Origin: Eledone cirrhosa
Lineage: Eukaryota
Reading direction: 5' to 3'
Length of the DNA: 64,000 nucleotides
Assembly (NCBI GenBank): GCA_964016885.1
Contig: OZ024740.1
Coordinates: 402,132,001 to 402,196,000, forward strand
The notes under the pieces are model-generated. The model worked only from the letters and a program-made list of their open reading frames with translations, searched no databases and was not told the DNA's origin. Below are positions 3,837 through 63,828 of the stretch, piece after piece; position 1 is the first letter of the stretch; every line of letters starts with the position of its first letter. A program made the translations under genes and the position numbers.

Positions 3837-4321
<485 letters not shown>

Positions 4322-9120: not shown

Positions 9121-9418
9121 TATATATTATGTATATAGGTGGCATTCTATGTGTGTATGTAAATGTGTATGCCCGTGGATTTATAAAAATGTATATATCT
9201 ATGTACATTTGTATACACATTCCTACGCATAAACACATACTCACACATACGTAAATATATACACACGCACACGCACGCACACACACACACACACACGCAT
9301 ACATAGACACACATATGTATATATATATATATATATATACACGAAACGTGCTTGTGTTTGTGTTTATACATATAATCACAAATTGATATGTATATATATA
9401 TTGTTAAATAGATAGATA

Positions 9419-10256
9419 AATTTCTTTATTAGCCACAAGGGCACAAAAGAAGTGGACAAATACAAATGAGGAGTTTACATACAGTATATGAAAATAAAAC
9501 TATTAATACAATAACAAATAACAATTGAAATCCCAATAGGGGGGAGGTGTTACACAGGGGTTTTACACACGCCGAAAAAAAGTACAAACCTCATCTCCAG
9601 GAGCACCAAGCGTGAGTACTCCCTTCCTCTCTTCCTCTTTTTCTTCAACCTACTGGCTTATATAGAGAGAAGGCCAAACCACTCGGGCCATCTTTGCCAC
9701 ATTCACCCACTTTTTATAAAATTTGCTGGGGTACAGCACCTCTCTCTCCATCCTGATTCTTCTTCCAAATTGATATTTGAAAAAACGAATCAGTTGCTCG
9801 CCGGAGAGAAAGGTGTCTGACCTCAGCCCTTTTAACTTCGTCCACCATATAACCTCTTTCACCATAGCCATAACACATAGGAAAACCGCCTCTCCCTCGT
9901 TTTTGAAGGAGGGCGGCGGTTTGATCATGACAATGGACGCGGGGGTCAACTGGATTGGTCCCACCCGCGACAATAGTCGTTCTACATAGCCCCACAGGTC
10001 GGTAACGCCCGGGCAGTGTACAAATGCGTGTGCGACGGGTTCCGCGTCGCGCACGCAACTTGGACAGATCTTTTTCGAGGGGTCCCTACCCGGGCCCCCG
10101 TGTTTGTAGAGCTTGTCTCAAACTGGTAGAGCTCTTCGGTAGCACTGCCAGGCCAGGGACTTTTGGAAGTTGTCCATTGGTCCCGTGCGGAAGGTCCTAC
10201 CGAACAGACTGGCCAGTTCGTCCTCCTCTACGCCTAGAGTTTCTCCGAGCATGTCA
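9419..10256 (-). mobile_element. Tx1-clade LINE, 5'-truncated (copy 2)
   Basis: ORF 9650-10054 matches the ORF2 zinc-finger C-terminus; TSD ttaaatagatagata at 9404-9418 and 10257-10271. Confidence 0.92.
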
Positions 10257-10323
10257 TTAAATAGATAGATAGATAGATAAACAGATAGATAGATAGATCA
10301 ATAGATAGATAGATACATAGATA

Positions 10324-12674
10324 TATTTCTTTATTTGCCACGAGTGCGCACAAAAAAAGGGGATTTTACATACAGTCGTGTGAAAAAAAAATATAAAACA
10401 AACAAACAGTTATAACAATCGAAATCCCCAATAGGGGGGAGACGTCACAAATGGGTTGTTTAATACCCCGTCGATTGAACAACCCTCAACTTCAGGAGCG
10501 TGTTGTGCAAGTGCTCCCTTCTTCCTTTTGCTCTCTTCTTTAACCTACAAGCATATAAACAGAGAAGGCCCAATCACTCGGGCCATTTTCGCTTCATTCA
10601 CCCACATTTCAGTAAATTTACTGGGGTGCAGTGCCTCACTCCCCACTCTGATTGTTCTTCTAAAGTGATACTTAAAGAAGGGAATCAATTGTTGTCCGGA
10701 GAGAAAGGCATCTGTCCTCAGTCCTCTCAATCTCGTCCACCATATAACCTCTTTCATCATAGCCACTGTACAAAGGAATACCGCCTCTCTTTCGTTTTGA
10801 AAGAGGTTGGCGGTTTGATCCTTAGTATGGACTCGGCAAGCAACTGGATTTGTCCCATATGCGACAGCAGTTGTTCTGCATAGTTCCACAGATGCGTTCC
10901 CTCTTGGTGAGGTATTCAAGGGGACAAGGCACGACAGTCAAGCGGTAGTAGACGACGGACGCTATGAAAGTGTTCGCCACCTCCGCTCGACCTTTCAAAG
11001 ACAGTTTGCACTCTGCCCACTTCTGGGTGAGCGCAAATACCTTGGCCAAGACCTCGTTCTAGTTTTTGTCCACCTGGAGGTTTGGACCGAACCAGAGCCC
11101 GAGCAATTTCACCGGTCCTTCCGTCCAGTGTCCGACGACGCTGTCGGACGGCATCAGTTTTCCTCTCCACGTTCCGAGTTGCAAACCGACAGACTTGTCC
11201 GGGTTCAGTTTTGCTCCTTTGAACCTTTCGTATTCCCGTAGTAGGTTGCCGATTACCTCGATTTCCGAGATTTTCGACACCATTACATTCACGTCGTCGG
11301 CATAAGCCGACGCTGCTTTTCGCATTCCCGGTTCTAAAGGGATGCCCTGCAAAAGCTCCAACTTCCGCAGTAGTGTCTCTAGAGTCAATACGTACAGAAT
11401 GGAGGAGAGAGGGCATCCCTGTCGAATGGAACGCGTGATTGCGAACGGCTCCGATAGGTAGCTGTTCACCTTGACCTTCGAGCAGATGCTGGTGTGCATC
11501 GCCTTGATCCAGCCTCTGAAAACGGGACTGAAACCGGCCGCCTTGAGAACCGTTTCCAAGTATCGATGGTCGACCCTATCGAATGCCTTAGACGGATCTA
11601 AATTGATCAGAGCCCCACCGAAGCCGGGTTTACACCCCTCCCTCTCTATGATGTATCGCATGAGGTGGAGGTTGTCGTGTATTGACCTGGTCGGGATTGC
11701 ACATGTTTGCGCTTTCCCTACCAGGTTTTCGATGACAAGCGCCAGCCTCGTTGCTAGCACCTTGACCAAAATCTTTTACTCTGTGTTGAGCAGAGTTATG
11801 GGCCTGAAATTGTTTATTTCGTCCCCCTTGTTCTCGTCTTTCCTGATCAGCGTTACTACGCCCTTGCCTGCAGAACTGGGAATTGTCCCGTTCTGCTGCC
11901 AATTGCAGTAGATGGCTTCGAGGACGCCAGATAACATTCCGGCATGTCTATGTAAAACTCATAGGGTATACCATCTAGACCGAGTGATTTGCGTTTCCCG
12001 CAGTGGGCCAGAGCGTCCCCTATCTCAGTAGCTGTGATCGGTCTTTCTCAGAACTCGGCGTCCATGCTCGAGAGACGCGGCAGGCTGTCGATGTATGAAC
12101 CAAAGTTCATTGCCCCGTTCGGTGCATCGTCGTTCTGTTCAAACAGTCGCGCAAAGCACCGATGAAAGGCCTCGCACATATGCCTGGGATCAAGTAGCAC
12201 GCGTCCGTTTTGAAAGACCGAATCATGGACTTGTTGCCACTTTTCGCTTCCGCCACTCGGGCCCAGCTAACAGCTTTTGCTCAATCGTTTCCTAGAGCAC
12301 ATGATTTACTTCTGAACACGCAGCTTTCGTGTTTCGCGTCGAAGAACTGGTCCAGTGCCGTTCTCAATGCTAGCACTCTAGCTGCGTTGCCACTCCTAAG
12401 CGCCTCTTCTACTTTGGCTACTAGTTCTGTTTCTGAATTGTTTTTCTCGAAAGCTAATTCTCTGCTAAACCCTATCGATTCTACTCTAATTGCTCTCTTG
12501 AGTTAGTACCACCATATATTGTTGACGATGGCTCCCGTCAACTCTTGCTTAACTAATCTACTTATCCGTTCACTGTAGGCTTTTCGTGCCGGTAACGACA
12601 CGTTCAGCTTCCAGTATCCGGGTCTTTGTCTATGTATTCTATCACGGTTGACTATGCAGACGACTAGTTTGTGA
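10324..12674 (-). mobile_element. Decayed Tx1-clade LINE (copy 3), 5'-truncated, with an internal deletion near 10890
   Basis: RT motifs SKAFDRV, SIRQGCPLS, YADD in ORF 11059-11769; stops and frameshifts; jumps from KRERI to the zinc-finger region; (GATA)n at both ends. Confidence 0.92.
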
Positions 12675-12688
12675 TAGATAGATAGATA

Positions 12689-12862
12689 TCTTTCTTTATT
12701 TGCCACAGGGGCGTACAAAAATGGGACATTACAAGACGGCGGGGATTTTACATAAAAATAACTTTAACATTAATAAATAACAATAAACTATATATAATAA
12801 AATAACAATTGAAATCCACAGTAGGGGAAACGTTACTGCAGGGTTGTTTTACACTCCGTGAA
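12689..12862 (-). mobile_element. Tx1-clade LINE, 3' UTR-only copy (copy 4)
   Basis: tttctttatttgccacaggggcg terminus shared with the other copies; truncated at the ccgtRgatag motif. Confidence 0.85.
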
Positions 12863-13085
12863 TAGATAGATTTCTTTATTTACCATAAAGGCATAAAAAG
12901 AAGGGACAAATACAAAGGGGGAGTTTACATATAATCGAGTAAAAAGGGTGTAACATGAAAATAATCGAAAATAACCTCAAAAGGGAGGGGACGTGATGGG
13001 GGTTGCACACGCCCCCGAAAAAGTGTGCAATCCTTTGCCCGGGGAGCACATGGAGAAGGTGCTCCCCTCTCCTTTACTTCTTTAC

Positions 13086-16000
13086 CTACAGGATGGTATA
13101 CAGAGAAGGCCCATTTACACGAGCCATTCTCGCCACTATCACCCACCTTTCATAAAACTGCCTGTGGCCAAGCACCTCTCTCTCCATTCTTATCCTTCTT
13201 CCGAAGTGATATCGGAAGAAGTAGACCAGACTATGGCCAGAGAGGAAGTTGCCTGACCTCAGACCTTTCAATCGTGTCCACCAAACAAACTCTTTCAACA
13301 TGGCTATTACGCACAGAAAAACCGCCTTTGCTTCCTTTGTGAAGAGGGGAGGCGGTTTGATTGTCATCACGGACTCGGCGGTCAATTTAATCGGCGCCAC
13401 CCGCGACAGCAGTTGTTCGGCGTAGCCCCACAGATCAGCCACGCCCGGACATTGCACCAATGCGTGCGCTACGGTTTCTTCGTGACGCACGCATCTAGGG
13501 CAAATCTTTTTTGAGGGATCCCTGCCCGGGAGCCCGTGTCTGTAGAGCCTCTCTCGAACGGGTAGAGCCCCTCGGTAGCACTGCCAGGCCAGTGACTTCT
13601 GGAAGTTGACCATTGGTCCTGGGCCGAAAGTCCTACCGAACAGGCTGGCCAGTTCGTCTTCTTCCATGTCCAGCGACTCTCCAAGGGTGTCATCGCCCCT
13701 GCTAGCCACCAGCCCTCTATAGAATGATGAGGTGGATTCTCCACCGATGGCCCGGCCCGCTTGCCAGAGAGCCCTGAGCGCTTGAGCACACTCAGTGTGC
13801 CAGTCTCCCAGTTTTCCGGATCTTTGCTTGACCCAGGACTGTAGCTCAGTGAGTGAGACGAGTCTCGGAAAGGCTCGTTTCACGAACGGAGCCCACACCG
13901 GTTGACCAGTGAGGAATACCTGTAGGTGCCGTAGCCTTAATGCGTGCCTACGCATCATCAACCACGGCATCCCCAGCCCTCCTTTCGAAGGTTGTTGGCA
14001 GCAGATGGATCTTCTCACCATAGGAGGACGCTTCTTCCAAAGAAATTGGAAGAGCATGCGTTCCATGGTGGTGAGTGTTTCCTTAGGGCAAGGCACGACA
14101 GTCAGGGGGTAGTAAGTGACGGACGCTATGTAAATGTTCGCCACCTCCGCCCGGCCTTTTAGGGACAGCTTACACTTGGCCCATTTCTGGGTTAGTGCAA
14201 ACACCTTGTTCGTAACCTCGTTCCAGTTCTTTTCCACCTGGAGGTCCGGTCCAAACCAGACCCCAAGCAACTTTACCGGGCCCTCCGTCCAGTGTCCGAC
14301 GACACTGTCGGGAGGCATCGGTTTGCCTCTCCACGTTCCGAGTTGCAGCCCGATGGATTTTTCCCGGTTCAGTTTCGCTCCTGACAACCTTTCGTACTCC
14401 TCCAGTAAGGTACCGATCGCCTCGATCTCCGAGTCGATTGATACCATTACTGTTACGTCATCGGCGTAGGCCGACACCGCTTTGCTCAATCCTGGTTCCA
14501 GGGGGATACCCTGCAACAACTCCAACTTCCTCAGTAAAGGCTCGAGAGTCAATACGTACAGAAGGGAGGAGAGAGGGCACCCCTGTCGAATGGATCGTGT
14601 GATTTCGAACGGCTTCGAAAGGTAGCCGTTCACCTTGATCCTAGAACAGATGTGGTTGCTATGTAGGGCAGTGATCCAGCCTCTGAAAACAGGACCGAAC
14701 CCAGCCGCCGCTAGCACCGCATCCAGGTAACCATGGTCGACCCTATCGAAGGCCTTAGACTGATCCAAGTTGATCAGGGCCCCACCGAAGCCGGGTTTGT
14801 TGCCAACCCTCTCTATGATGTATCGCATGAGGTGGAGGTTATCGTGAATGGACCTGGATGGGATAGCACATGTCTGCGCATCTCCCACCAGGCTACCCAC
14901 GACAAGCGCCAACCTCTTTGCTAACACCTTGGCCAAAATCTTTAACTCTGTGTTTAGCAGGGTTATGGGCCGAAAATTATTTATACTATCCCCCTTGTTC
15001 TCGTCCTTCCTCACCAGCGTGACTACGCCCTTGGCTACAGAACAAGGAATTCTCCCGTTCTGCTGCCAATTGCAGTAGACCGCTTCGAGGAGTTCGGAGA
15101 AGAAGACCGGCATTGCTAAATAAAGTTCGTAAGGTATACCATCGAGACCTGGAGATTTGCGTCTGCTGCATTGGCTCAGCGCATCTCCGATCTCATCAGC
15201 CGAGATTGGTCCCTCGCAGGACTCTGCCTCTTTGTTCGAGAGACGCGGCAGGCCGTCGAGGTATGGACCGAAATCCACGCCCCGGCCCGGACCATCGCCT
15301 CCCCCGAACAATCGGGCAAAGTGCTTTTGAAAGGCCTCGCACATCTGCTTAGGCTCCCGGATCACTCGTCCATCTTCGTCTTGCAACGACCGGATGGTGG
15401 ATCGATTTCCACTTTTAGCTTCTGTCACGCGGGCCCATCCAACGGCTTTGGCCCCCTCATTACCTAGAGCACGTATTTTACTTCGAATGACGCAGCCTTC
15501 ATGCTTTGCATCGAAAAACTGGTTCAAGGCCGTCCTCGATGCCAGCACTCTGGCCACATCTTCGCTCTTGATTGCCTCTTCTAATTTACCTGTTAATTCT
15601 TTCTCGTTTCTATTCCTATTGGCAGCTAACATCTTGCTATAACTTATTGATTCTGTTCTAATCTCTCTTTTGAGAGATGCCCACCATCGGTTGTTGACGA
15701 TTGCACCCGTCAACCTCTCCTTAACTAATCTGCTAATCCGGTTTCTGTAAGTCTCTTTTGCCGGTAAAGACAAATTAAGTTTCCAGTAACCGGGACCCTG
15801 TCTATGTGTTTTCTCGAGATTGACCACGCAGGTCACTAATTTGTGATCCGTGTAGCCAACCGTGCGCATTTCTGGACAGCTTAATATGTCCCTATCCTTA
15901 CTTCTAACTAAGAATCTATCTAAGTACGATCTAGATTGACCACTGTGGTTTCTCCAAGTCCAGGTAGGCACAGTTGGAAAATCTAGTCGATATCTATCGA

Positions 16001-16523
16001 CCAAGTTAAAACGGTCGAGTAACCCCTTGAGGCTGTTACACCCCCCTCTATTAGGACATGCTCCTGCATAGTCCCAACGTGCATCCAGGATGTCATTCCA
16101 ATCCCCCGCTAGAAGCAGGGAACGCGACGTTCCCAGAAAAGTCTCCAAACGCTGGAAGAAGTCGGGCCGTTCAGCTCCGAAAGGGGAGTAGACGGCGACC
16201 AGTCTCAAGGCCGCACTTTCACTACTGCCAACGTCTAGCACCAACAAACGACCCTCCGGGTCCGAGTGCACAACCTGTACGGCAAGACCCAGGTGTTTTT
16301 GCAGCAGCACGACAACCCCACCCCCACCTCCAGATTGACAGAGAGATGCATGCACCTCAAAGTCATCGAAGGTGGGGGCCAGCTGCCGCATGACGCTGAT
16401 TCGAGTCTCACAGATAACCATTACATTTATACTACATGACCTGAGGTCATTTAGAAGCTTTGCTTGCTTCCAAGTTGAGCCCAGGCCACGTGCATTCAAA
16501 CATCCTACTCTTAACACATCCAT
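13086..16523 (-). CDS. LINE ORF2: AP endonuclease + reverse transcriptase + C-terminal CCHC zinc finger (1145 aa, intact)
   Basis: APE motifs CLNARGL, ETR, VYSP, GDWN, SYLDRF, TDH; RT motifs KSPGLDG, FRPITLLN, DQSKAFDRV, RQGCPLS, YADD; CPRC...H...C. Confidence 0.97.
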   Translation of the reverse strand: MDVLRVGCLNARGLGSTWKQAKLLNDLRSCSINVMVICETRISVMRQLAPTFDDFEVHASLCQSGGGGGVVVLLQKHLGLAVQVVHSDPEGRLLVLDVGSSESAALRLVAVYSPFGAERPDFFQRLETFLGTSRSLLLAGDWNDILDARWDYAGACPNRGGCNSLKGLLDRFNLVDRYRLDFPTVPTWTWRNHSGQSRSYLDRFLVRSKDRDILSCPEMRTVGYTDHKLVTCVVNLEKTHRQGPGYWKLNLSLPAKETYRNRISRLVKERLTGAIVNNRWWASLKREIRTESISYSKMLAANRNRNEKELTGKLEEAIKSEDVARVLASRTALNQFFDAKHEGCVIRSKIRALGNEGAKAVGWARVTEAKSGNRSTIRSLQDEDGRVIREPKQMCEAFQKHFARLFGGGDGPGRGVDFGPYLDGLPRLSNKEAESCEGPISADEIGDALSQCSRRKSPGLDGIPYELYLAMPVFFSELLEAVYCNWQQNGRIPCSVAKGVVTLVRKDENKGDSINNFRPITLLNTELKILAKVLAKRLALVVGSLVGDAQTCAIPSRSIHDNLHLMRYIIERVGNKPGFGGALINLDQSKAFDRVDHGYLDAVLAAAGFGPVFRGWITALHSNHICSRIKVNGYLSKPFEITRSIRQGCPLSSLLYVLTLEPLLRKLELLQGIPLEPGLSKAVSAYADDVTVMVSIDSEIEAIGTLLEEYERLSGAKLNREKSIGLQLGTWRGKPMPPDSVVGHWTEGPVKLLGVWFGPDLQVEKNWNEVTNKVFALTQKWAKCKLSLKGRAEVANIYIASVTYYPLTVVPCPKETLTTMERMLFQFLWKKRPPMVRRSICCQQPSKGGLGMPWLMMRRHALRLRHLQVFLTGQPVWAPFVKRAFPRLVSLTELQSWVKQRSGKLGDWHTECAQALRALWQAGRAIGGESTSSFYRGLVASRGDDTLGESLDMEEDELASLFGRTFGPGPMVNFQKSLAWQCYRGALPVRERLYRHGLPGRDPSKKICPRCVRHEETVAHALVQCPGVADLWGYAEQLLSRVAPIKLTAESVMTIKPPPLFTKEAKAVFLCVIAMLKEFVWWTRLKGLRSGNFLSGHSLVYFFRYHFGRRIRMEREVLGHRQFYERWVIVARMARVNGPSLYTIL

Positions 16524-16556
16524 GTGGGCGGCAGAGCCAAAGGAGAGTGTAGAGAC

Positions 16557-19348: not shown

Positions 19349-19367
19349 TATATATATATCTATATAT

Positions 19368-19565
19368 ATTGTTATATTTTGGGAGGGTCATGCTGCCAAT
19401 AAAAACACAGGCACCTGTTGGTTTTCACTTCAATTTATTATAAATGAATACCTCTGGGGCGTGTGTTTTCATTGGCAACATGACTCTCCCAGAGTATAAC
19501 AATATCTGTTTCAACACACGTTTTCAGCTATGTAATGTCGCTAAACAAATTCAAAAACAAATATA
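19368..19565. mobile_element. Fold-back element in (TA)n, same family as 33425-33815 and 63208-63768
   Basis: Inverted ttgttatattttgggagggtcatg / catgactctcccagagtataacaa followed by tgtttcaacacacg. Confidence 0.8.
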
Positions 19566-20630: not shown

Positions 20631-20642
20631 TAGATAGATATG

Positions 20643-20919
20643 TATTAAAATAACAGATTAATGTTTAAGCAAAGAATCGCTGCTTTCAACCTTAACGGGA
20701 TCTTCTGAAACTAACAAAGTTTTTAAAATATTCACTTCTGCGTTTACACTTTGACATTGTTAGTTTCAGAAGATCCTGTTAAGGGTGAAAGCAGCGATTT
20801 TTTGCTTAAACTTTAATCTGTTATTTTAATAAATATTTGCTCTACGGTTCTTATATATTTGATATATATTTATCCTTATCGAGCCGTCTTTGGATTTTAG
20901 TCTTCAAATTTATTATTAT

Positions 20920-20925
<6 letters not shown>
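20643..20925. mobile_element. Fold-back element (75-bp arms) in (TA)n; family also at 25772-25895, 58280-58372, 63025-63170
   Basis: 20643-20717 inverted with 20757-20831; shared tail tttgctctacgg...ggattttagtcttcaaatttattattattac(ta)n. Confidence 0.85.
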
Positions 20926-20971: not shown

Positions 20972-21326
20972 GTTTGTATATGTATAATAAAGCCAAAACA
21001 ATGCAGGTATGGACATAGAATAAAGAATGCAAATGCAAAAGATATTGTTGACAATTAGTCTTTTACCTTAGGTTTATTTAAATGTCCTTAATTTTCGAGA
21101 TAATATCTCTTCTTCGGAGTCAGCATGACCTTGCAAGCTATTTAGAACACTGGTTTAACCGCTTTACTTCCCTCCGAAGAAGAGATATTATCTCGAAAAT
21201 TAAGGACATTTAAATAAATCTAAGGTAAAAGACTAATTGTCAACAATATCTTTTGCATTTGTATTCTTTATTCTATGTCCATACCTGCATTGTTTTGCCT
21301 TTATTATACATATACAAACGTTTATA
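20966..21326. mobile_element. Fold-back element with ~150-bp near-perfect arms; hammerhead-like variant core at 21170-21206
   Basis: 20966-21117 is the reverse complement of 21172-21326; CCGAAGA-A-GAGA-uauua-UCUC-GAAA-AU-UA-AGG. Confidence 0.8.
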
Positions 21327-21488: not shown

Positions 21489-21892
21489 AGTATTACTAAC
21501 TACCGAAATTATTCTATTGACATCTTAAAACACGAACGTATATTTACTCCTTTCCTACAGAAGCCACAAGTAAACTATTTTTTATCAAAGCTGTCATTTT
21601 ATTAAAGCTGTTATATTTCTCGGTATGTCATTCTGCCCATTAAAAAAATCTCCAATTTCAGCATGACAGAACAGGGGATAGGTTGACTGCCATCTTCCAC
21701 ACAAACTGATTTGACACAATTTTATCACCACGTACCCCAATTGTATTCGCTTACAACTGTTCAATGAAACGAGATTTTCTGCTCACATTTAATTTTATTC
21801 GTATGAAGAATCTCCATTAGGCTAGTATATATATATATATTTATATTTAATTTGTTGGAATTCAACAGATTAGTGGAGTAAATACAAATCTG

Positions 21893-21958
21893 TATTTTAT
21901 CTGATGATAGCGCACCATAACTTGCCTTGGTTGCCCTTGAAATATCTATAATAAAATA
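21893..21958 (+). ncRNA. Minimal type-I hammerhead ribozyme (family also at 52426-52490)
   Basis: UAUUUUAU-CUGAUGA-stem II-GAAA-UAUCU-AUA^-AUAAAAUA; 8-bp stem I. Confidence 0.7.
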
Positions 21959-22141
21959 AATATGGTTTTATAAATATAGTTTCCATTTATTAATATATAT
22001 ATTGGCTTAGTTTGTTTGGCCTTTATAACCTATATTTATTGCTCTGGTCTTTGTTTAGTCCATGGAGCGCTTGCCAGCATAACTCGGATATTGCGTTTCG
22101 CTTTGTTTTCGACAACTACTGAAATTCAATCTCGCTGAAAT

Positions 22142-22217
<76 letters not shown>

Positions 22218-25450: not shown

Positions 25451-26429
25451 TGTGTATGTATGTATGAATGTATGCGTGTATGTATGTATTCATGCATTTA
25501 TGTATGTATATATCCTGTTTTACTTGGTAAACGCGCACCCATATACTCGCAAATGTCCGTAAAGATATATTTCTATTCCTATGTTAATACCTATATATAT
25601 AAAGTACTTAGAGCATGTATGAAAGATAAGAAGATAAACAGGCGATTGTAGATTTCAAAGCATATAGGTATAAATAGAAGAAGGGATAGATATAAATACA
25701 TAAATATACATAACTAATTACAAGGAGACACATACCAAGAAATACACACTTATATATATATATATATATATAGTAATAATATTAAATGTGAAGACTAAAA
25801 TACGAAGAGGGCTCGTTAAGGATATTGCATGTATACATATATATAAAACCGTAGAGCAAATATTTATTAAAATAACATTAAAGTTTAACCATAGAACATA
25901 TATATATATATATATAAAATAGTGGGGGGGGGGGGCGTGTGTGTGTGTGTGTATGTGTGTGTTTGTGTGTGTGTGTGTGTTGATTCTACTTCATACAAGA
26001 TGTATCATTATATATGCCCTTTTAGGTAATTTTAACAGATATTTTATACAAAACCATATAAAAATAAGTCGCATTTATATTTTATCTTTCTGAAAATACT
26101 CTTTAATTAACAACCTTTTGTACTTAAATATCTGCAATAATTAATTGATATTGTTAGCAAAAAACACTTATTTATTTGTAATTGGCATTGAAATATAATT
26201 TGAATTAATTTACAATTAATTTAAATATATTATTTTAGTAATTATACATAAACATTATTCCATTTATTAAACATACATAAAGATATACTTTGCCCTATTC
26301 ATATGTGTTTTACTTATGTACGTAATAATATATGGAACAAATTTGTATGCATAATGTCTTGTTTTGTTTTTCTCTGGATAAAAACGAGCTTATTTATAAG
26401 TGATTTATTAAAGGCAGTAAACAATAGAA

Positions 26430-26913
26430 ATAGCTCAAGGATTAATGAGAATAATATAGGGATCCCCAATAACTATCTTACGTATGGCTGTAATTTCACA
26501 AATAGAAGCATTTGCCCCATACATGGAAATTGTTTGATTAATAATCTAATATATAAATGCTCTGTGTCTACTACAGACTCCAACAAAACATATATAGGAT
26601 CTACAGCAAACACATTTAAGAAAAGATTTTACGCACACTCTAGTAGTTTCAACAATACTAAACTAGCTAAAACCACAGCTTTAACTGAAGCGGTAAATAA
26701 TTATAAAAAGAAAAAATAGATTTCAAGTTATCGTGGAAAACCATTCTACAAAGAACTCCATATCTTGGGAACAGGAGGGAATGCAGATTATGTTCAGGGG
26801 AGATCTTGAAAATTACTAAATCTAAGGACGATTTATTAAATAAAAGACAAGATTTGATCATAGTTTGTAATCACCGTATAAGAAAAACATTTAAATACTA
26901 TAAACCTAATTAA
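26430..26913 (+). pseudogene. Penelope-like element GIY-YIG endonuclease relic, Naiad-like
   Basis: C-x-[F]-x5-C-x5-C linker, LIYKC...TYIGST...FKKRFYAH; after a frameshift in the A-run near 26710: SWKTI...PY...CRLC..E...LLNKR....CNH, stop at 26911-26913. Confidence 0.85.
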
Positions 26914-31820: not shown

Positions 31821-32669
31821 ACGTCTCTCTCTCTCTATGTATGTCTCTCTCTCTCACACTCTCTCTCTCTCTTTATCCCGCTCCCTCTCTTGTATACACA
31901 CCCACATGAGCGCGCGCACACACACACACTTGTATATATATATATATATATAATAGGGAGAGAACGAGAGGGATAGTGTGTGTGTGTTTGTGTCTGTGTG
32001 TGAGAGAGAACGAGACAGAGAGCGTGTGAGAGAGAGTGAGTGCGAGAGAGAGTTAGGGAGAAACAGACAAGTACTTTTACGAAAATAGATACGTAAACGA
32101 TAATGAAGTTAAAAATATATGGTAAATGATGGCAAGTGCTATTCAATTCGATAAAATAATTTTAAAAGCCAGGAATAGCTTCTTAGAGAGAACACGTTTT
32201 AAACTAAAGGAAAAGCAGCTAGAAATCAAGTATAGATATAATAAACAATAATAATAATGAGAAAACGTGAACTAAAAGCACAGGTTCCTGTTACATAATA
32301 TTTCTAATATATAAAAATATATGCAAATTCGCATAAAGTAATTAATATTATATACATACATCCGAAATACCGTTTCAAAACCACTATACATACATATATA
32401 TAAACGGAAAAAATGAAACGAAATTTCATTTCTCACTCTTAGTACGGCTGTTACTTAAATATAAGTATGTATACGTACATACATATATGTATACAGACGT
32501 ACAGTAGTATGTATATATATATACATACATGCACACATATATATATGTACGTATGGATTCACCGAACATTTATTATAATGCTCGGTGTGTTTGTAAACAA
32601 ACATCCCGAATTAAGCCGTACAGTGTCTAGCAACCATCGTTGCTCATTTGTTCAACACTGACAAAGGAA

Positions 32670-32710
32670 CGGTGTACTAGTTTCAAGCTTATTAGCTATC
32701 GTCAGCAACG
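32670..32710 (-). ncRNA. Minimal type-I hammerhead ribozyme (left-arm copy)
   Basis: Minus strand CGUUG-CUGACGA-U-AGCU-aaua-AGCU-U-GAAAC-UA-GUA^-CACCG (one stem I mismatch). Confidence 0.8.
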
Positions 32711-33024
32711 TATACCTTCCTGTCAGATGATTGAACGTCTGAAAGTATATACTTTCCTTATGCATATTAACGGCTGAGCAGCCTAATTTCCATATCGAGT
32801 GAGTTAATCTGTATACATATATGTATGTACGTATACATACTTATATTTAAGTAACAGCCGTACTAAGAGTGAGAAATGATATTTCGTTTCATTTTTTCCG
32901 TTTATCGTTTTCGGTGCACCCGGCCGATTAACTCACTCGACATGAAAATTAGGCTGCTCAGCCGTTAATATGCATAAGGAAAGTATATACTTTCAGACGT
33001 TCAATCATCTGACAGGAAGGTATA

Positions 33025-33065
33025 CGTTGCTGACGATAGCTAATAAGCTTGAAACTAGTACAGCG
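33025..33065 (+). ncRNA. Minimal type-I hammerhead ribozyme (right-arm copy)
   Basis: CGUUG-CUGACGA-U-AGCU-aaua-AGCU-U-GAAAC-UA-GUA^-CAGCG; palindromic stem III ACUAGU. Confidence 0.88.
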
Positions 33066-33258
33066 TTCCTTTGTCAGTGTTGAACAAATGAGCAACGATG
33101 GTTGCTAGACACTGTACAGCTTAATTCGGGATATTTGTTTAGAAACATACCGAGCATTATAATAAATGTTCGGTGAATCCACACGTACGTATATATATAT
33201 GTGTGCATGCATGTATATATACATACTATTGTACGTCTGTATACATAAATGTATGTAC

Positions 33259-33290
<32 letters not shown>

Positions 33291-33424: not shown

Positions 33425-33815
33425 ATATATTGTTATACTTGGGGGGGGGGGGGGGGTCATATTGTTGTAATAATATTGCCAGAATTAATAACAGAACACA
33501 CTCACAGTTTGGTTGATTTTCACTTCTGTATCTTCTATATCAGTTAATTCATTCGGTCCTCAATGTTTACCATTGAGTGACCAACGGTCAAAAATACAGA
33601 TATAATATAGATATAAACAAATATATATAGTCTAACAAAGTTCTTTCGTTGCACATCTGCATGATACAAAGGATACAGAAGTGAAAACCAACCAAACAGT
33701 GAGTGTGTTCTGTTATTAATTCTGGCAATATTATTACAATATGACCCTCCCCAAGTATAACAATATTTGTTTCGACACACGATTTCATATCAAAAACCTC
33801 GCAAAACAAATACAT
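33425..33815. mobile_element. Fold-back element with ~100-bp arms in (TA)n
   Basis: 33430-33533 inverted with 33672-33766; related to 19368 and 63208. Confidence 0.85.
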
Positions 33816-33824
33816 ATATATATA

Positions 33825-34020
33825 AATCCCGGGTTCAATGTGTGGTAAACACAGTAAGTAATTACTCAATGCATTAGTAGAGTGTATATACAAATCGTAA
33901 TATAGAAATTGCTTCAACTGAACTAGAACAGTTTCATTGGAAGGAAATCACCAGGAAATCTTTCATTCGAATGAAACAGTTCTAGTCCTGTAGAAGCCAT
34001 TTCTATATTAGATTTGTTAT
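33825..34020. mobile_element. Fold-back element, same family as 33291-33420
   Basis: acaaatcgtaatatagaaattgcttc...actagaacagtttcatt inverted with aatgaaacagttctagt...gaagccatttctatattagatttgt. Confidence 0.7.
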
Positions 34021-47021: not shown

Positions 47022-47932
47022 CCGAATATACAAATATCTTACCGTATATATAAATATTCTTACCGAATATACAAATATCTTACCGTATATATAAATATTC
47101 TTACCGAATATACAAATATCTTACCGAATATATAAATATTCTTACCGAATATACAAATATCTTACCGTATATATAAATATTCTTACCGAATATACAAATA
47201 TCTTACCGTATATATAAATATTCTTACCGAATATACAAATATCTTACCGTATATATAAATATTCTTACCGAATATACAAATATCTTACCGTATATATAAA
47301 TATTCTTACCGAATATACAAATATCTTACCGAATATATAAATATTCTTACCGAATATACAAATATCTTACCGTATATATAAATATTCTTACCGAATATAC
47401 AAATATCTTACCGTATATATAAATATTCTTACCGAATATACAAATATCTTACCGAATATATAACTATTTTTACCGAATATACAAATATCTTACCGAATAT
47501 ATAAATATCTAACCGAATATACAAATATCTTACCGAATATATAAATATTCTTACAGAATATACAAATATCTTACCGAATATATAAATATCTTACCGAATA
47601 TACAAATAACTTACCGAATATATAAATATCTTACCGAATATACAAATATCTTACCGAATATACAAATATTTTTACCAAATATACAAATATCTTATCGTAT
47701 ATATAAATATTTTTACCAAATATACTAATATCTTATCGTATATTTTTACCGAATATACAAATATCTTACCGTATATATAAATATTCTTAACGAAAATACA
47801 AATAACTTACCGTATATATAAATATTCTTACCGAATATATAAATATCTAACCGTATATATAAATATTCTTACCGAATATACAAATATCTTACCGTATATA
47901 TAAATATTCTTACCGAATATACAAATGTCTTA
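47022..47932. repeat. Minisatellite: alternating 20/21-bp monomers forming a 41-bp higher-order unit
   Basis: ttaccgaatatacaaatatc + ttaccgtatatataaatattc repeated ~22 times. Confidence 0.95.
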
Positions 47933-48010
47933 CTTTGCAACTGGAAGTCAGTTTACTTGAAAACCTCTCAATATCACTTTTAATAACTAGAAGAAAACGA
48001 TATATATATA

Positions 48011-49108
48011 TATAAAGAATTAGTATATCTAGTAACATATATATACACAGATGCATACTTATGCTAGCAAATATATAGGTTTTGTCTTAGTAACTTTGTG
48101 GTTCAATGCATGGGGTTGCAGAATAATAATATGAGAGACGTAAAATAAGAAAATTATAAAATTAACTTACTTACTAAAATTTCACTCCCAACTAATTAGT
48201 TTCTGAAAGGGAATAAACATACTTTCCGAAGAAGAGTACAGAGAAGCCTTTCGTAATCAGGGAAGTCTATTCTCAGCTAAGTTTCCAGGCAATATGTGGA
48301 CACAGGGAACTTATACAAAAATAATTCAGTGGATGGAAAAAGCAAAGCGTGGACTAAATTCCAAGCCATTGAGAAAATCACTGCCTACTGCGTCGGTGGC
48401 AAATTCAAAAGAATTAATCACGTGACATCGAGGTCAATCAGTGGAGAGTGGTTTGTTAAGAAGACAACAGCCGGACTGTTACTATAGCAGCAGTTTTTGG
48501 CCAATTTTTGCTCGATAAATAATTTGGAGATAATTATAAAGAATTAGTATATCTAGTAACATATATACAATTTTCTTATTTTACGTCTCTCATATTATTG
48601 TTCTGCAACCCCATGCATTGAACCACAAAGTTACTAAGACAAAACCTATATATTTGCTAGCATAAGTATGCATCTGTGTATATATATGTTACTAGATATA
48701 CTAATTCTTTATAATTATCTCCAAATTATTTGTCGAGCAAAAATTGGCCAAAACTGCTGCTATAGTAACAGTCCGGCTGTTGTCTTCTTAACAAACCACT
48801 CTCCATTGATTGACCTCGATGTCACGTGATTAATTCTTTTGAATTTGCCACCGACGCAGTAGGCAGTGATTTTCTCAATGGCTTGGAATTTAGTCCACAC
48901 TTTGCTTTTTCCATCCACTGAATTATTTTTGTATAAGTTCCCTGTGTCCACGTATTGCCTGGAAACTTAGCTGAGAATAGACTTCCCTGATGACGAAAGG
49001 CTTCTCTGTACTCTTCTTCGGAAAGTATGTTTATTCCCTTTCAGAAACTAATTAGTTGGGAGTGAAATTTTAGTAAGTAAGTTAATTTTATAATTTCCTT
49101 ATTTTACG

Positions 49109-49117
<9 letters not shown>
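48011..49117. mobile_element. Inverted, circularly permuted dimer of a ~524-bp hammerhead-containing non-coding element (retrozyme-like)
   Basis: Left arm 48011-48568 (redundancy at 48011/48535); right arm 48569-49117 (redundancy at 48569/49092); arms near-identical in reverse complement but in different phase. Confidence 0.92.
48981..49063 (+). ncRNA. Type-I hammerhead ribozyme with extended stem II and palindromic stem III
   Basis: ACUUCC-CUGAUGA-C-GAAAGG...CCUUUC-A-GAAAC-UAAUUA-GUU^-GGGAGU; the minus-strand twin at 48184-48266 has a CUGAUUA core mutation. Confidence 0.8.
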
Positions 49118-49177
<60 letters not shown>

Positions 49178-49641: not shown

Positions 49642-50227
49642 TATCCTTCCATAGTCGTTTATTCTATCATTTTTCAGACACTACTTTTAATATCATTTAT
49701 TTTAATATTTTCCACTACAAACATACACACAACTAATGATATATATATATATATACCAAAATCTGAGGTTTTTCTAAGTGTGAATTCCACACGTGCTTTT
49801 TCGAGACTCTGTGTCACTCACAAAGTTGGTACAGAGCAAAATACCTGTTGATAACGTGATATTCCTTGTTCGACCATTATACCTAAAGCTTATAATTTTA
49901 AGCAGACATTATTTTGATATAGGTGTCATAGAAACCCCGCATTTGGAATTTAACATCAATTATAAGGGGTCTAGGTCTGTGTTTTCTTTATCATTTATTT
50001 TATTTTGTTTTTGACCTGTTTAGCTTGATTTGCTTTTTGGTTTAGGTGGTTGACGCTTTCTTGACCACTATTTCAGTTTTGTATGGCTTCTTAACATATT
50101 GTTTAGCTCTAGTTTTTTAATTATCGAGCGCTTGCCAGTATCATATCTGATTTTTGCGTTTCGTTTCGCCTTCTCTACCCGCCGAAATGCGATTCTCGCT
50201 GAATCTATATTTATATATATATATATC

Positions 50228-52290: not shown

Positions 52291-52425
52291 TCTCTCTATA
52301 TATATAATATATAAAAGATAGTGTTAAGATAGTGACATATTTTATTTAATGCACTTAATGGTATAAGTCCATATATATATATATACGATATTAACAAATA
52401 GAAACTATATTTATAAAACCATATT

Positions 52426-52490
52426 TATTTTATTATACATATTTCAAGGACCCCACGTTAAATTATGGTATGCTTTCATCAGACAAAATA
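52426..52490 (-). ncRNA. Minimal type-I hammerhead, homolog of 21893-21958
   Basis: Minus strand UAUUUUGU-CUGAUGA-...-GAAA-UAUGU-AUA^-AUAAAAUA. Confidence 0.65.
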
Positions 52491-53128
52491 CAATATAGAT
52501 CAGTTTTATAAATAATTAAAAAATATTTCCTCTAGTCACATAGCACAAGTTAACGAACGAAAACAAAGCAAACTGAAAAACATTTTTTTAAAGACAAACC
52601 TTAAAAATTATTTTTTTAAAAATAAAATTACAAACGAAAGACACAGAACTCTACGGTCATCGGACACAGAAATGGAGAAAATTCCTCAAACGCTCCTGTC
52701 TGTCGATCTCACCCAGATACTGAGGTAACCGTAAAAGTAAAACCCCCATAGTCAGGTTTATATAATCATATTGTATATGGTTTCATATAAACCTCTATGA
52801 TGAATCACGTTATGTGAGTATTACTGCTAATATATAAATATGTGTGTGCATATGTGTGTTTAGGAGTGTGTGTACTAGTAGTAAAATATTATATTTAAAT
52901 TGTATGCTTTAGTATATATATATTGTTGAGAAGTATGTCATAATTATTGATGATTTTCCGACACACCTTTCCCCAACATTACTTTGGACGCCGTCGAAAG
53001 GCAATGACAAAACTGGGTCACTTTGTTTTCCTTTTCTCGCATTCATTTCTCCATTTGCTCCATTTCACTGACACGTTCTTTCTTGCAATTATCATGGCGT
53101 CACTATTTTTCACAGACACATACACGCA

Positions 53129-58253: not shown

Positions 58254-60067
58254 ATATATATATGTATATATATATATTTGTATTTGCTCTACGGGTCTTA
58301 TATATCTGATATATATTTATCCTTATCGAGCCCTCTTTGGATTTTAGTCTTCAAATTTATTATTATTACTATATTTATATATATATATGTATATATATGT
58401 ATATATATATGTATATATATATTTATATATATGTGTATATATATATATACTTTCATATATATATATATATACATATATATATATGTGTATATATATATAT
58501 CCTCCCCCCCCCCCATATACACACAATCTCAAAAGCGGGTACCTAAACCACCATTTGTACTGCATCTCTCTTTTTTGTTCCTGTCTAATATTTTACTATA
58601 TATTAATATTTATATATATATAAACTTAAATATAATCTATGTAAGTTTATGTATATATATATATATTTAGTTGTGTGTGTTTTATACATATAGATACATT
58701 TAATAGATAAAGTTATAATTAATTTGATACTATATATAGATCAAAGTTCATTACACGGAAAGTTCTATGTAAGATTTATAAGAACATGGAATGTGTATAT
58801 GTGTATGTTATATTTAAACTCACGCACTCGCATGTACTTCCACACACACTTACACACACATAGAAATATTTCGTGTGAGTAAGGAGAGAGAGTGGGGAGT
58901 GAAAGGCCTGAATACGGGCATTACCAAAAGTTTTGGGATAAAATATTCACTTCTCGTTCATAAGGCCTTGGTTAAATCTACTGTGGTATCTTATCATAGC
59001 CTCCTGTCGATCCAAGTATTCGTGCCGTTGAGCTTAGAGCAATTATCCAGAATGTGGAAAATAGTGAATTGGTTGTTTCGTAGCAGCCGCTGGCTACTTT
59101 TTGCGTCCATAGAAGTATTTTACCGGATTTTATATCCTATTATTTAAAGCATTCGACAGGGTTTACAGTAATTTTCTGCGACTGAGATTCCTATTTTTTT
59201 AATGAATTTTATAACTACTCAGCGATTCGATAATTCATAAGCCCCCCCCCCCCCCCCACACACACACACACATACACATACACAAAACGCACACACATAT
59301 ATATATATATATATTTAAAGGTTAAACAAGGTTCAATGAATAAATCAAAGAATATAATTCATCACAAGAAGTTCTATTTTTGTTAATATTTTGAATTAAC
59401 ATATATATATATATATATATATATGTTTGTGTGTGTGTATGAATTTCTACAAATATATATACACACACACCCATAAACTGCACACACACACGCACACACA
59501 CACATATAGTGAGAGATATAGATGTATATACGCATTCGCACACAATATATGTATATATATAATATACATACGTACATACATATACGTACACAAATGTCGA
59601 CGCACATATATACACAGTTTCTGTGTGAGGGAACAAAGCTCCTATGTGTGTAGTTAGTAAATTAGATGATTTTATTTACTTTTACTGATTTCTCACCAGT
59701 AAGTTGTGTGATAGCATCATTTCTCGGTCATCAAACGTAACAGACTGGCGGAGCTTCATATAGCAATCCAGACACGTTTACATTATTCTTGATGAGAAAT
59801 CAACGACGGCGATTTCTTTCACTTTTCTCATTATATTTATTTTTCTTCTCATTTTAATTGTTTCTTACTTATTAATTCGATACTAATTTTTGTTAAGCCA
59901 AAGATTTCTGACTGTTTTTTTTTTTGTTATTATCTTTGTTATTGTTTCTTTTTATTATTTGTTATTGTTATTGTTGTAGTTATTCTTAGATCCATTTGTT
60001 CAGTTTGTTCTCCTCTGAGTTAAATATCTAATATTTTCGAAATCCCATACTTCATGTACGCCTATAT

Positions 60068-61039: not shown

Positions 61040-61481
61040 ACATAGTGAGAGAGAGAGACAGATACATATATACACACACAAACACACATATATGCGTGTG
61101 TGTGTGTATCTGTCTGTCTGTCTCTCTGTGTATGTGTAATCAATGTTATCTGGAATACTCTACACAAACACTTGATGACAACTCGGTAGCAATGAATTCC
61201 TTGTTAGAAAGTTACAAAATATACAAGGTATCGATGTAAGGGTTATCTTTTAAACAAACATTACATGTTAATATGACTGGTTTCAGACAACACCAATAAC
61301 ACTGTTTATCTGAAGATACAAGGCTTTCTTTTCTTCAGATTCCAAATGAGAGGATTCGTTAGTAAAACTTACAAATTTAAAAATAGCTCTGAAATTACTT
61401 TTTGTATGGATGATGGGAGGGCGTATTGTTTTAAAATCAAATATAATTTCATACCTATCTATCTATCTATCTATCTCTTTA

Positions 61482-62177
61482 ATCATGGGCGCCCGGGCAG
61501 GGACCCTGCAAAAAAGATCTGTCCGAGGTGCGTGCGAGACGAAAAAACCGTCGCGCACGCATTCATACACTGCCCGGGCGTCACTGACCTGTGGGGCTAT
61601 GTAGAACGACTATTGTCGCGGGTGGGACCAATCCAGTTGACCACCGAGTCCATTGTCATGATCAAACCGCCACCCTCCTTCAAAAACGAAGGAGAGGCGG
61701 TTTTCCTTTGTGTGATAGCTATGGCGAAAGAGGTTGTATGGTGGACAAGGTTGAAAGGGCTGAGGTCAGACACCTTTCTCTCCGGCCAACAACTGATTCT
61801 TTTTTTCAAATACCACTTTGGAAGAAGAATCAGGATGGAGAGAGAGGTGCTGTACCCCAGCAAGTTTTATGAAAGGTGGGTGAAAGTGGCGAGAATGGCC
61901 CGAGTGAATGGGCCTTCTCTCTATATCAGCCTGTAGGTTGAGGAAAAGGAGGAGGAGAGGAAAGGAATACAAGCTCTTCGTACTCCTGGAGATGAGGGTT
62001 GCACATTTTTTTTTCGGGGGTATGTGTTACCCATATAAACTGTCTCCCTCTATTGGGGAAAATCGACTAACTTTTAAATTCCATCTGTGATAACATTTTA
62101 CACGTTTTTATTGTATGTAAACTTCCCCCTTTGTATTTGTCCCCTTCTTTTGTGCCCCTGTGGCTAATAAAGAAATA
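61482..62177 (+). mobile_element. Tx1-clade LINE, 5'-truncated (copy 6)
   Basis: ORF2 C-terminus KKICPRCVRDEKTVAHAFIHC...; TSD tatctatctcttta at 61468-61481 and 62178-62191. Confidence 0.93.
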
Positions 62178-62277
62178 TATCTATCTCTTTATCTATATCA
62201 AATTTAATTTATCCTTTTACCTCACCTACTGTGGTGCCCCCTATTGAACCAGAAACTCACACACACATAAGTATATA

Positions 62278-62371
<94 letters not shown>

Positions 62372-62401
62372 AAAGTATAGAGGTGTAACACACGAGTTAT
62401 G

Positions 62402-62733
62402 ATATATTGGTAAAAGGAAAAGAAAATGCTGATCAATTGTTCCCAGTGAAAAATAGTTTAATTAGGAATAAGTAAAAATTAGTAATAGTATTGGTTAGTA
62501 TTCAGTTTTGGTTTTAAGTTTTACCGGTTGCGTATTTCTAATGCTTTTCAAAAATAATTTTGAGATAGAGCGCCCGTGATGTTTGCTCTAATCAGATTAG
62601 AACAAACATCACGGGCGCTCTAAAACTTAAAACCAAAACTGAATACTAACCAATACTATTAATAAGTTTTACTTAATCCTAATTAAACTATTTTTCACTG
62701 GGATCAATTTGTCAGCATTTTCTTTTCCTTTTA

Positions 62734-62742
<9 letters not shown>
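62402..62742. mobile_element. Fold-back element with ~120-bp arms plus an inner 27-bp hairpin, in (TA)n
   Basis: 62402-62523 inverted with 62620-62742; tagagcgcccgtgatgtttg / caaacatcacgggcgctcta. Confidence 0.85.
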
Positions 62743-62765
<23 letters not shown>

Positions 62766-63166
62766 ACCTGTTAGTTTTTTCGTTACTTTGGTATTGTGTG
62801 GTTAGGTTAGGTTTTGCCTACCACAATGTTCAATTTGTCAAGCTATTTAAACATATGTTATTATTCTAAGGACTCTTATTGAGTGCTTTTCTAACTCATT
62901 CATACTTTATGTCGACTTTGCTTTCGCACAGCCAAAGCTTCGATTTTTCTAAGCTTCCACTTGTATACTGAACTTGAACTATTGGTGTTAAACTAACACA
63001 TAATCTTATATATACGTTTGTATGTAGAAGATCCCGTTAAGGATGAAAGCAGCGATTATTTGCTTAAATTTAATGTTATTTAAATAAATATTTGCTCTAC
63101 GGTTCTTATATATTAGATATATATTTGTTCTTATTGGATTTTAGTCTTCGCATTTATTATTATTAC

Positions 63167-63210: not shown

Positions 63211-63762
63211 CGTTTCTGAATTTGTTTAGCAAGATTCTTTATCTAAAAACGTGTGTTGAAACACACAGAAATGACGCAATGTTTAGACAAATCACAGAGG
63301 CAATAAACATAAATGAACTCCAACCAAATTAAATAGAAAGCATGAATGGAATTGCAACATCACAACTTACAATTAAGGACAAAATGAAAACACACACACA
63401 CATAGAACAAACAACCAACCAGTAACATGTTAATGAACAAATAAATAAACAAATAAAAACACACACAGACACCCTGCTGTAACACATGCGCAAACTAAGC
63501 ACACAACACACACAAAAACAAGATAGCGTAGGACAGAACAAAGGAGAGGCACAAAACAAAGAGAAGAATCCTCAGTCACTGAAGAGGTCACAGAACGTGT
63601 GACGAAAGAATTTTGACAATATATGATCAACCGTCCGGTTGTGGAACCAACCAACTAACCGGAAATTTATAAATTCTTAAATTTATAAATTTAATTTATA
63701 ATAAATTGGAGTGAACATCTGGTGCGTGTGTTTCTTATTGGCAACATGACCCTCCCAAATAT

Positions 63763-63768
<6 letters not shown>
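63208..63768 (+). mobile_element. Longer copy of the 19368/33425 family with a hammerhead-like motif at 63575-63617
   Basis: GUCA-CUGAAGA-G-GUCAC-agaacgu-GUGAC-GAAA-GAAUUU-UGAC; 3' end gaccctcccaaatataacaa(ta)n; short inverted 5' arm 63208-63265. Confidence 0.7.

Positions 63769-63828
<60 letters not shown>

Follow-up and report, generated by a model that had tools for sequence, protein, structure and literature searches.

The window, by which we mean the whole 64-kb stretch of DNA that was analysed, carries at positions 48011–49117 two arms of a repeat unit joined head to head. We designate this repeat family A. The features of the locus are as follows:

48000–48013 (no strand): left target, a short (AT)n run into which the left-arm 3′ end merges through TATA microhomology (read from the sequence and the junction)
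48011–48567 (minus strand): left arm, whose 3′ end falls at the putative "tailed" start site X, the more downstream of the two (phase 48713; from the repeat and the alignment)
48011–48043 (minus strand): left-arm terminal redundancy of 33 nt, second copy at 48535–48567 (exact match)
48184–48266 (minus strand): left-arm hammerhead, minus-strand cut after 48190; core changed from G8 to U at 48255, predicted to be inactive
48560–48572 (no strand): head-to-head junction of the two 5′ ends, with TA-rich microhomology and one extra C
48568–48680: single-copy loop of 113 nt between the two 5′ ends
48569–49117 (plus strand): right arm, whose 3′ end falls at the putative tail-less start site Y, the more upstream of the two (phase 48594); no long ORF, GC content of 35%
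48595–48713 (plus strand): segment of 119 nt between the 3′ end sites Y and X, the putative equivalent of the "tail" of Penelope-like elements (PLEs)
48981–49063 (plus strand): type I hammerhead with an intact core, cut after 49057; stem III and its loop form a perfect 12-nt palindrome (dimer-type)
49092–49117 (plus strand): right-arm terminal redundancy of 26 nt, first copy at 48569–48594, with one mismatch
49115–49175 (no strand): right target, a (TA)30.5 microsatellite

The left arm, which runs from 48567 to 48011, is 557 nt long and comprises a 524-nt unit plus 33 nt (1.06 units), and its terminal direct repeat has a period of 524. The right arm, which runs from 48569 to 49117, is 549 nt long and comprises a 523-nt unit plus 26 nt (1.05 units); its terminal repeat has a period of 523 and contains a stretch of 21 exact nt. 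These redundancies agree with the ~30 bp and ~25 bp given in the original prediction. When both arms are expressed in right-arm coordinates, the start and end phases are 48681 and 48713 for the left arm and 48569 and 48594 for the right arm. The two arms are thus offset on the unit by 112 nt at their 5′ ends and by 119 nt at their 3′ ends, as expected from the claim that the inverted arms begin at different phases. The 3′ ends of both arms point outward and run into (TA)n through TATA or ATA microhomology, and both arms traverse the hammerhead cut site; these two points had also been read correctly from the sequence, but the G8→U change in the left-arm core had been overlooked. Any target-site duplication is unreadable within the (TA)n. 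A reading of the locus as a MITE or a DNA transposon was rejected: the arms are permuted and their outer ends differ. A 41-nt minisatellite of 22.5 copies (47022–47933) ends ~80 nt to the left of the element, and no link between the two was found.

Alignment of the reverse-complemented left arm with the right arm revealed 550 identical bases among 556 aligned, with 6 substitutions and one 1-nt indel. The palindrome is read from the assembly, and an assembly or chimeric-read artefact has to be considered. However, the arms of a fold-back chimera would be identical and share their phase, whereas these arms differ both by the changes just described and in phase. Furthermore, the left arm, not the right arm, has the family-majority letter at two of the differing sites, and the same architecture recurs in other families of the window (described below). 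An artefact is therefore highly improbable.

Family A is a multi-copy family. It occupies the single locus 48011–49117 within the window, and one arm (553 nt) was covered by 2437, 2402, and 2501 contigs, at a range of identities, in 3 runs of one sample (X1–X3), in which about half of the sampled words were present and which may represent a related population or species. A RAD run from a different study (X12) gave 6095 reads on the same 553-nt arm. The 523-nt unit (35% GC) has longest stop-free frames of 63 aa in sense and 72 aa in antisense, and an ORF with a reverse transcriptase (RT) plus GIY-YIG, which would define an autonomous EN+ PLE, was not found in it. Beyond TA-rich bits, no homology to the unit was seen elsewhere in the window, nor was a partner PLE with homology to it found there. 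The circular minimum free energy of the unit is −101.4 kcal/mol (z −1.2), and 11 of 60 shuffled sequences were as stable; as modelled, a family A circle is not unusually self-paired, unlike the described retrozyme circles.

The contigs of X1–X3 commonly pass head to tail from 49089 to 48569, with the listed pieces being shorter than 180 nt. Position 48569 is thus not a fixed 5′ end of the family, because the contigs continue from 49089 back to it. One contig of X2 joins 48593 to 48710 on opposite strands, an ambiguous joint in which either a Y end abuts an X end or a different centre is seen. Two other signals were set aside: (i) a joint from 49057 to 48569, seen in one contig in each of X1–X3 at the edge of the aligned stretch, cannot be read as a circle junction; and (ii) the pile-ups of read ends in the RAD run, of which 6 of 12 were listed, were rejected as element ends for these 6, 5 of them lying exactly on AATT sites of the reference and the sixth (48597) lying off such sites.

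The right-arm hammerhead, a predicted self-cleaving motif, is composed of a 6-bp stem I, a 6-bp stem II above a C·A apposition, and a stem III that lies in the 12-nt palindrome. A descriptor search of the window returned 4 matches, 3 of which had a stem I of at least 6 bp, compared with 1 such match in 30 shuffled windows. Rfam gave no match at the gathering threshold and no hammerhead family at E values up to 10, where only miRNA-type matches to the palindrome and the (TA)n appeared. The ribozyme assignment therefore rests on the descriptor and on read variation. In X1–X3, the substitution 49060 G>A, which converts a U·G pair of stem I into a U–A pair, accounts for 39%, 58%, and 50% of the contig depth, respectively, and in the loose ends of contigs the hammerhead core is kept and stem II has diverged. 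The hammerhead fold (−15.1 kcal/mol) is less stable than a competing fold (−17.6 kcal/mol), a gap of 2.5 kcal/mol. The left-arm core reads CUGAUUA, and the left-arm hammerhead is predicted to be inactive, with the requirement for G8 taken from the G8C mutant in the study of the PLE protein PAc (PMC11167929).

Typical traits of the minimal hammerheads of PLEs are that helix III is palindromic and that A9 is followed by an unpaired base (Cervera & de la Peña 2014, PMC4209133). The hammerhead of family A has both traits, together with a long helix II that opens with a G-C pair, as in the minimal PLE hammerheads, but differs from them in an extra A before G12 (the C·A apposition), in a 36-nt loop II, and in the lack of an Rfam match here. 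Hammerhead pairs on opposite strands, 100–700 bp apart, have been noted in Schistosoma (PMC4209133); the 2 cut sites of family A lie ~870 bp apart. According to the same source, dimer-type hammerheads cleave poorly, and in vitro cleavage was reported absent for 8 of 9 predicted Xenopus retrozymes (Li, Clavereau & Pollet 2026, bioRxiv 10.64898/2026.07.22.740005). A search of metagenome and viral contigs with the hammerhead-core pattern gave no match.

The window contains 10 local inverted structures. Besides family A, 4 repeat families (designated B to E) have copies that can be compared with one another:

2107–2469: B2, an inverted pair of family B with arms of 0.36 and 0.48 units, without a hammerhead core
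32400–33277: B1, an inverted pair of family B with arms of 0.95 and 1.07–1.10 units
21890–21995 (plus strand) and 52385–52495 (minus strand): hammerhead family C, copies 85% alike, both ending ~40 nt past the cut in (TA)n
33430–33790, 19366–19560, 63690–63770, and 63212–63263: family D, inverted pairs with a tail of ~55 nt at one end and spacers of 119 and 52 nt
20638–20922, 25773–25896, 58281–58369, and 63026–63166: family E, an inverted pair with a tail of ~85 nt

Family B has a 428-nt unit with its own hammerhead, in which stem III is palindromic and the cut falls after 33060, and is represented by 2 head-to-head insertions (B1 and B2). Its similarity to unit A does not exceed that of shuffled sequences. 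Its circular fold has a z of −6, a strength that is probably inflated by TA-rich palindromes. The X ends of B1 and B2 are identical, and their Y ends coincide to within 13 nt of TA-ambiguous sequence. The 3′ end is at the same place in both copies of family C; the tail-less end is common to all 3 copies in family D (3/3), in whose short arms no hammerhead core was seen; and the tailed end is common to all 4 copies in family E (4/4). In these sister families, 3′ ends are fixed and 5′ ends vary. The fixed 3′ ends rest on the sister families, with family A itself providing one locus and its 119-nt offset. It had been proposed that variable phases would support a circular template and that fixed ends would refute it; this test was mis-set, because 3′ ends recur in independent copies of families B, C, D, and E. 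The discriminating feature is arm length piling up at one unit, not phase.

Each of the 5 inverted pairs whose ends are callable, which is the case only where a second copy exists (B1, B2, D1, D2, and E1), has one tailed and one tail-less end; the pairs at 4021, 20972, 33898, and 62408 were left uncalled. Such mixed ends in 5/5 pairs indicate a single insertion event. This bears on the possibility that 2 family A elements inserted independently, back to back, in one (TA)n tract. In its favour are the multi-copy nature of the family and its (TA)n targets, the TA-rich sequence around the junction, and the 7 differences between the arms. Nevertheless, the pairing of tailed with tail-less ends in the sister families speaks against it, no host sequence lies between the arms, and the arms share uncommon letters. 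Among the 40 variant positions listed (143 further ones exist), the right arm is in the minority at 16 in all of X1–X3, and at 14 of these 16 the left arm has the same letter as the right arm, having the majority letter at the other 2. The 14 shared minority letters indicate that both arms came from one source or sub-lineage, and 2 independent insertions are quite unlikely.

A gap of 110–119 nt between the two 5′ ends was noticed, after the fact, in 4 of the 10 inverted structures (A, B1, B2, and D1). A constant central spacer of this length was rejected: the other 6 structures have gaps of 13, 39, 52, 52, 97, and 147 nt, and even within family D the spacer varies between 119 and 52 nt. Inverted pairs adjoining (TA)n were also seen at 4021–4321, 20972–21319, and 33898–34010, with a CUGAUGA core at 4193 (minus strand) inside a spacer.

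The geometry of the locus can be compared with what has been reported for PLEs. PLE insertions often have an inverted 5′ copy and a 30–40-bp tail at one end, and the Naiad elements favour (TA)n targets; how PLEs form tandem and inverted structures is stated in that source to be open (PMC8557442). The head-to-head arrangement is the commonest form of rotifer Penelope, for which self-priming of the antisense strand was proposed (PMC3846280), and partial tandems are the active form of Drosophila Penelope (PMC2377424). Purified PAc, a PLE protein of the anole, cleaves and extends both strands in vitro and initiates at 2 internal RNA sites, which mark the limits of the tail; its main substrate is uncut RNA, and RNA cleavage is dispensable in vitro (PMC11167929). 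Like the EN+ PLEs (Penelope/Poseidon, Neptune, and Naiad; PMC8557442, PMC3846280, PMC11167929, and PMC2377424), locus A has head-to-head arms, a putative extension at one end, AT-rich or (TA)n targets, a hammerhead upstream of the putative start sites, and a cut site that is read through. It differs from them in that (i) it has no RT–EN ORF; (ii) its offset is 119 nt rather than 30–40; and (iii) each of its arms is an entire permuted unit, where PLEs have a truncated pLTR.

Animal retrozymes have been tied to PLE pLTRs in a 2026 preprint (bioRxiv 10.64898/2026.07.22.740005). Family A resembles the animal non-LTR retrozymes (PMC7229834 and the same preprint) in its non-coding, low-GC, multi-copy unit with one type I hammerhead, its head-to-tail continuity, the proposed circRNA template, and the proposed mobilisation by PLEs. 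A tandem of at least 2 hammerhead units, as in those retrozymes, is absent at 48011–49117 itself, where the arms are inverted and of ~1.05 units each (1.05–1.06 units per arm), and the unit is weakly self-paired in comparison. The unit length of 523 nt is above the range of 170–400 nt given in PMC7229834 and within that of 51–972 nt given in the preprint.

The original prediction had explained the different phases by reverse transcription primed from both target strands at different positions on a circular or concatemeric RNA. The two-strand priming stands, since it fits the geometry and the behaviour of PAc (PMC11167929); freely chosen phases do not, and the offset is most likely a PLE "tail" bounded by 2 fixed start sites. 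The element very probably works like a PLE-mobilised non-LTR retrozyme, in effect a non-autonomous PLE, inserted by two-strand priming. In L1 twin priming, both target strands likewise prime on the RNA and the cDNA ends are joined head to head. Compared with L1 twin priming, locus A has no poly(A) and no readable target-site duplication, its starts are internal and apparently fixed, and its arms overlap over their whole length.

An inverted arm could also be made by self-priming or fold-back on an antisense template, the explanation proposed for head-to-head PLE repeats with junction palindromes in rotifer Penelope (PMC3846280). A junction hairpin of this kind is present in another inverted pair of the window (62568–62621), but there is none at A. 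Moreover, simple fold-back requires one arm to be nested in the other, and neither arm of A is nested (offsets of 112 and 119), as is likewise the case in B1 and B2. For family A, fold-back is thus very unlikely. The pair with the hairpin, at 62370–62736, has a possible left tail of 38 nt and resembles the rotifer Penelope junction palindromes in its own right.

Two-strand priming by PLE machinery with a circular monomer as the template has, in our judgement, about an even chance of being the correct account of locus A. The steps would be the following. The transcript of a tandem or more-than-unit copy would be cut by its dimer-type hammerheads into monomers, some of which would be ligated into circles. 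A PLE protein would nick both strands of a (TA)n, and each 3′-OH would start a cDNA at one of 2 fixed internal positions, which lie 60 nt and 179 nt past the cut. Both cDNAs would cross the cut site, for which a ligated or uncut template is needed, and would stop after one turn plus 26–33 nt, at about the point at which the enzyme would run into its own, anchored cDNA. The 2 cDNA ends would then be joined via TA microhomology, and the 7 differences between the arms would have arisen later.

Provided that the start sites are as proposed, copying of a cut linear monomer of A would yield arms of 60 and 179 nt at most, and the template must therefore have been ligated or uncut. The choice is thus between a circle and a linear read-through RNA, a dimer or partial tandem of at least 1.28 units for a single template, primed on both strands by a PLE protein with the inner hammerhead left uncut. 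On such an RNA, near-unit arms would result from a 5′ end made by a ribozyme or a promoter, or from chance. At A, the right arm begins 34 nt past the upstream cut phase, and this locus is equally well explained by a linear RNA whose 5′ end was made by a ribozyme and in which one ribozyme stayed uncut. Consistent with read-through, uncut RNA is the main substrate of PAc (PMC11167929), partial tandems are the usual active form of PLEs (PMC2377424), dimer-type hammerheads cut poorly (PMC4209133), and the continuity from 49089 to 48569 is common in the contigs of X1–X3. By contrast, the arms of B1 are about one unit long although their stops lie 293 and 175 nt away from any cut phase, which a ribozyme-made 5′ end cannot explain, and none of the 6 mapped arms of families A and B exceeds 1.1 units. 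We regard the linear read-through RNA as possible but not probable.

Under a simple exponential null, coupled random stops would fall within 0.9–1.15 units in 6–9% of cases. B1 is the only independent case of one-turn arms (n = 1), because locus A was picked for this property. B2 stops 10 nt from the cut, as would be expected of a linear monomer. The summed contig depth of family A from the cut to X is 3.1–3.7-fold above that elsewhere; this depth does not measure copy number and falls wherever the reference diverges, and the threefold step is weakly suggestive of a circle. A circular template is modestly favoured over an uncut multimer. A circle predicts that arm lengths pile up at one unit for both start sites, which a linear multimer does not predict. 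We tentatively propose, as a less than probable extension of the circular template, that PLE enzymes, working as a pair and primed by both target strands, go round the ligated retrozyme circle once and then stall, such that insertions derived from circles would have 2 one-unit arms at fixed, different phases and those derived from cut linear monomers would have short arms ending at the cut. If so, both products would lie in one window (A and B1 versus B2), and the distance between 2 enzymes on one RNA would be given by the gap of roughly 110–119 nt that separates the 5′ ends in A, B1, B2, and D1.

A circular template for more-than-unit copies was proposed in 2014 for PLEs (PMC4209133) and in 2020 for retrozymes (PMC7229834); in the literature surveyed, the circRNA step of animal retrozymes is proposed and not demonstrated at the level of insertions. 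The word "inverted" is absent from the main text of PMC7229834 and, in the main text of the 2026 preprint, is confined to the title of a reference. Searches of open-access main texts revealed no retrozyme insertion described as inverted with one-turn arms. Penelope-like families with recent activity are listed in a paper on Octopus vulgaris repeats, the main text of which contains no mention of hammerheads or retrozymes (PMC13282606). Short non-autonomous units such as these make the topology of the template readable from DNA alone, and the locus links retrozymes to the PLE machinery by insertion geometry, beside the arguments from co-occurrence and homology. If the circle is correct, the locus would be a genomic footprint of hammerhead circRNAs that serve in animals as genuine intermediates of retrotransposition; otherwise, it would be an ordinary PLE-type insertion of an unannotated retrozyme family.

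The surrounding window is AT-rich animal DNA with many microsatellites, SINE-like repeats, and LINE remnants, and its repeats resemble those of an octopus. A frameshifted C-terminal GIY-YIG remnant lies at approximately 26500–26912 (plus strand; Pfam E value of 5e-4, below the curated cut-off), which from its motifs we take to be of the PLE type; a solved-structure search with it returned nothing useful. The presence of this remnant counts in favour of mobilisation by a PLE. A diverged direct repeat of ~330 nt at 740–1387 (70% alike) has a CUGAUGA...GAAA motif at 1184 and is possibly an old tandem retrozyme. Another repeat, at 22062–22147 and 50123–50211, is 73% alike, and both of its copies end in (TA)n. 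An open frame of 1155 aa at 13086–16556 (minus strand) contains endonuclease, RT, and zf-RVT domains and represents a LINE, and further LINE remnants are located at 9400–12900 and 61277–62200.
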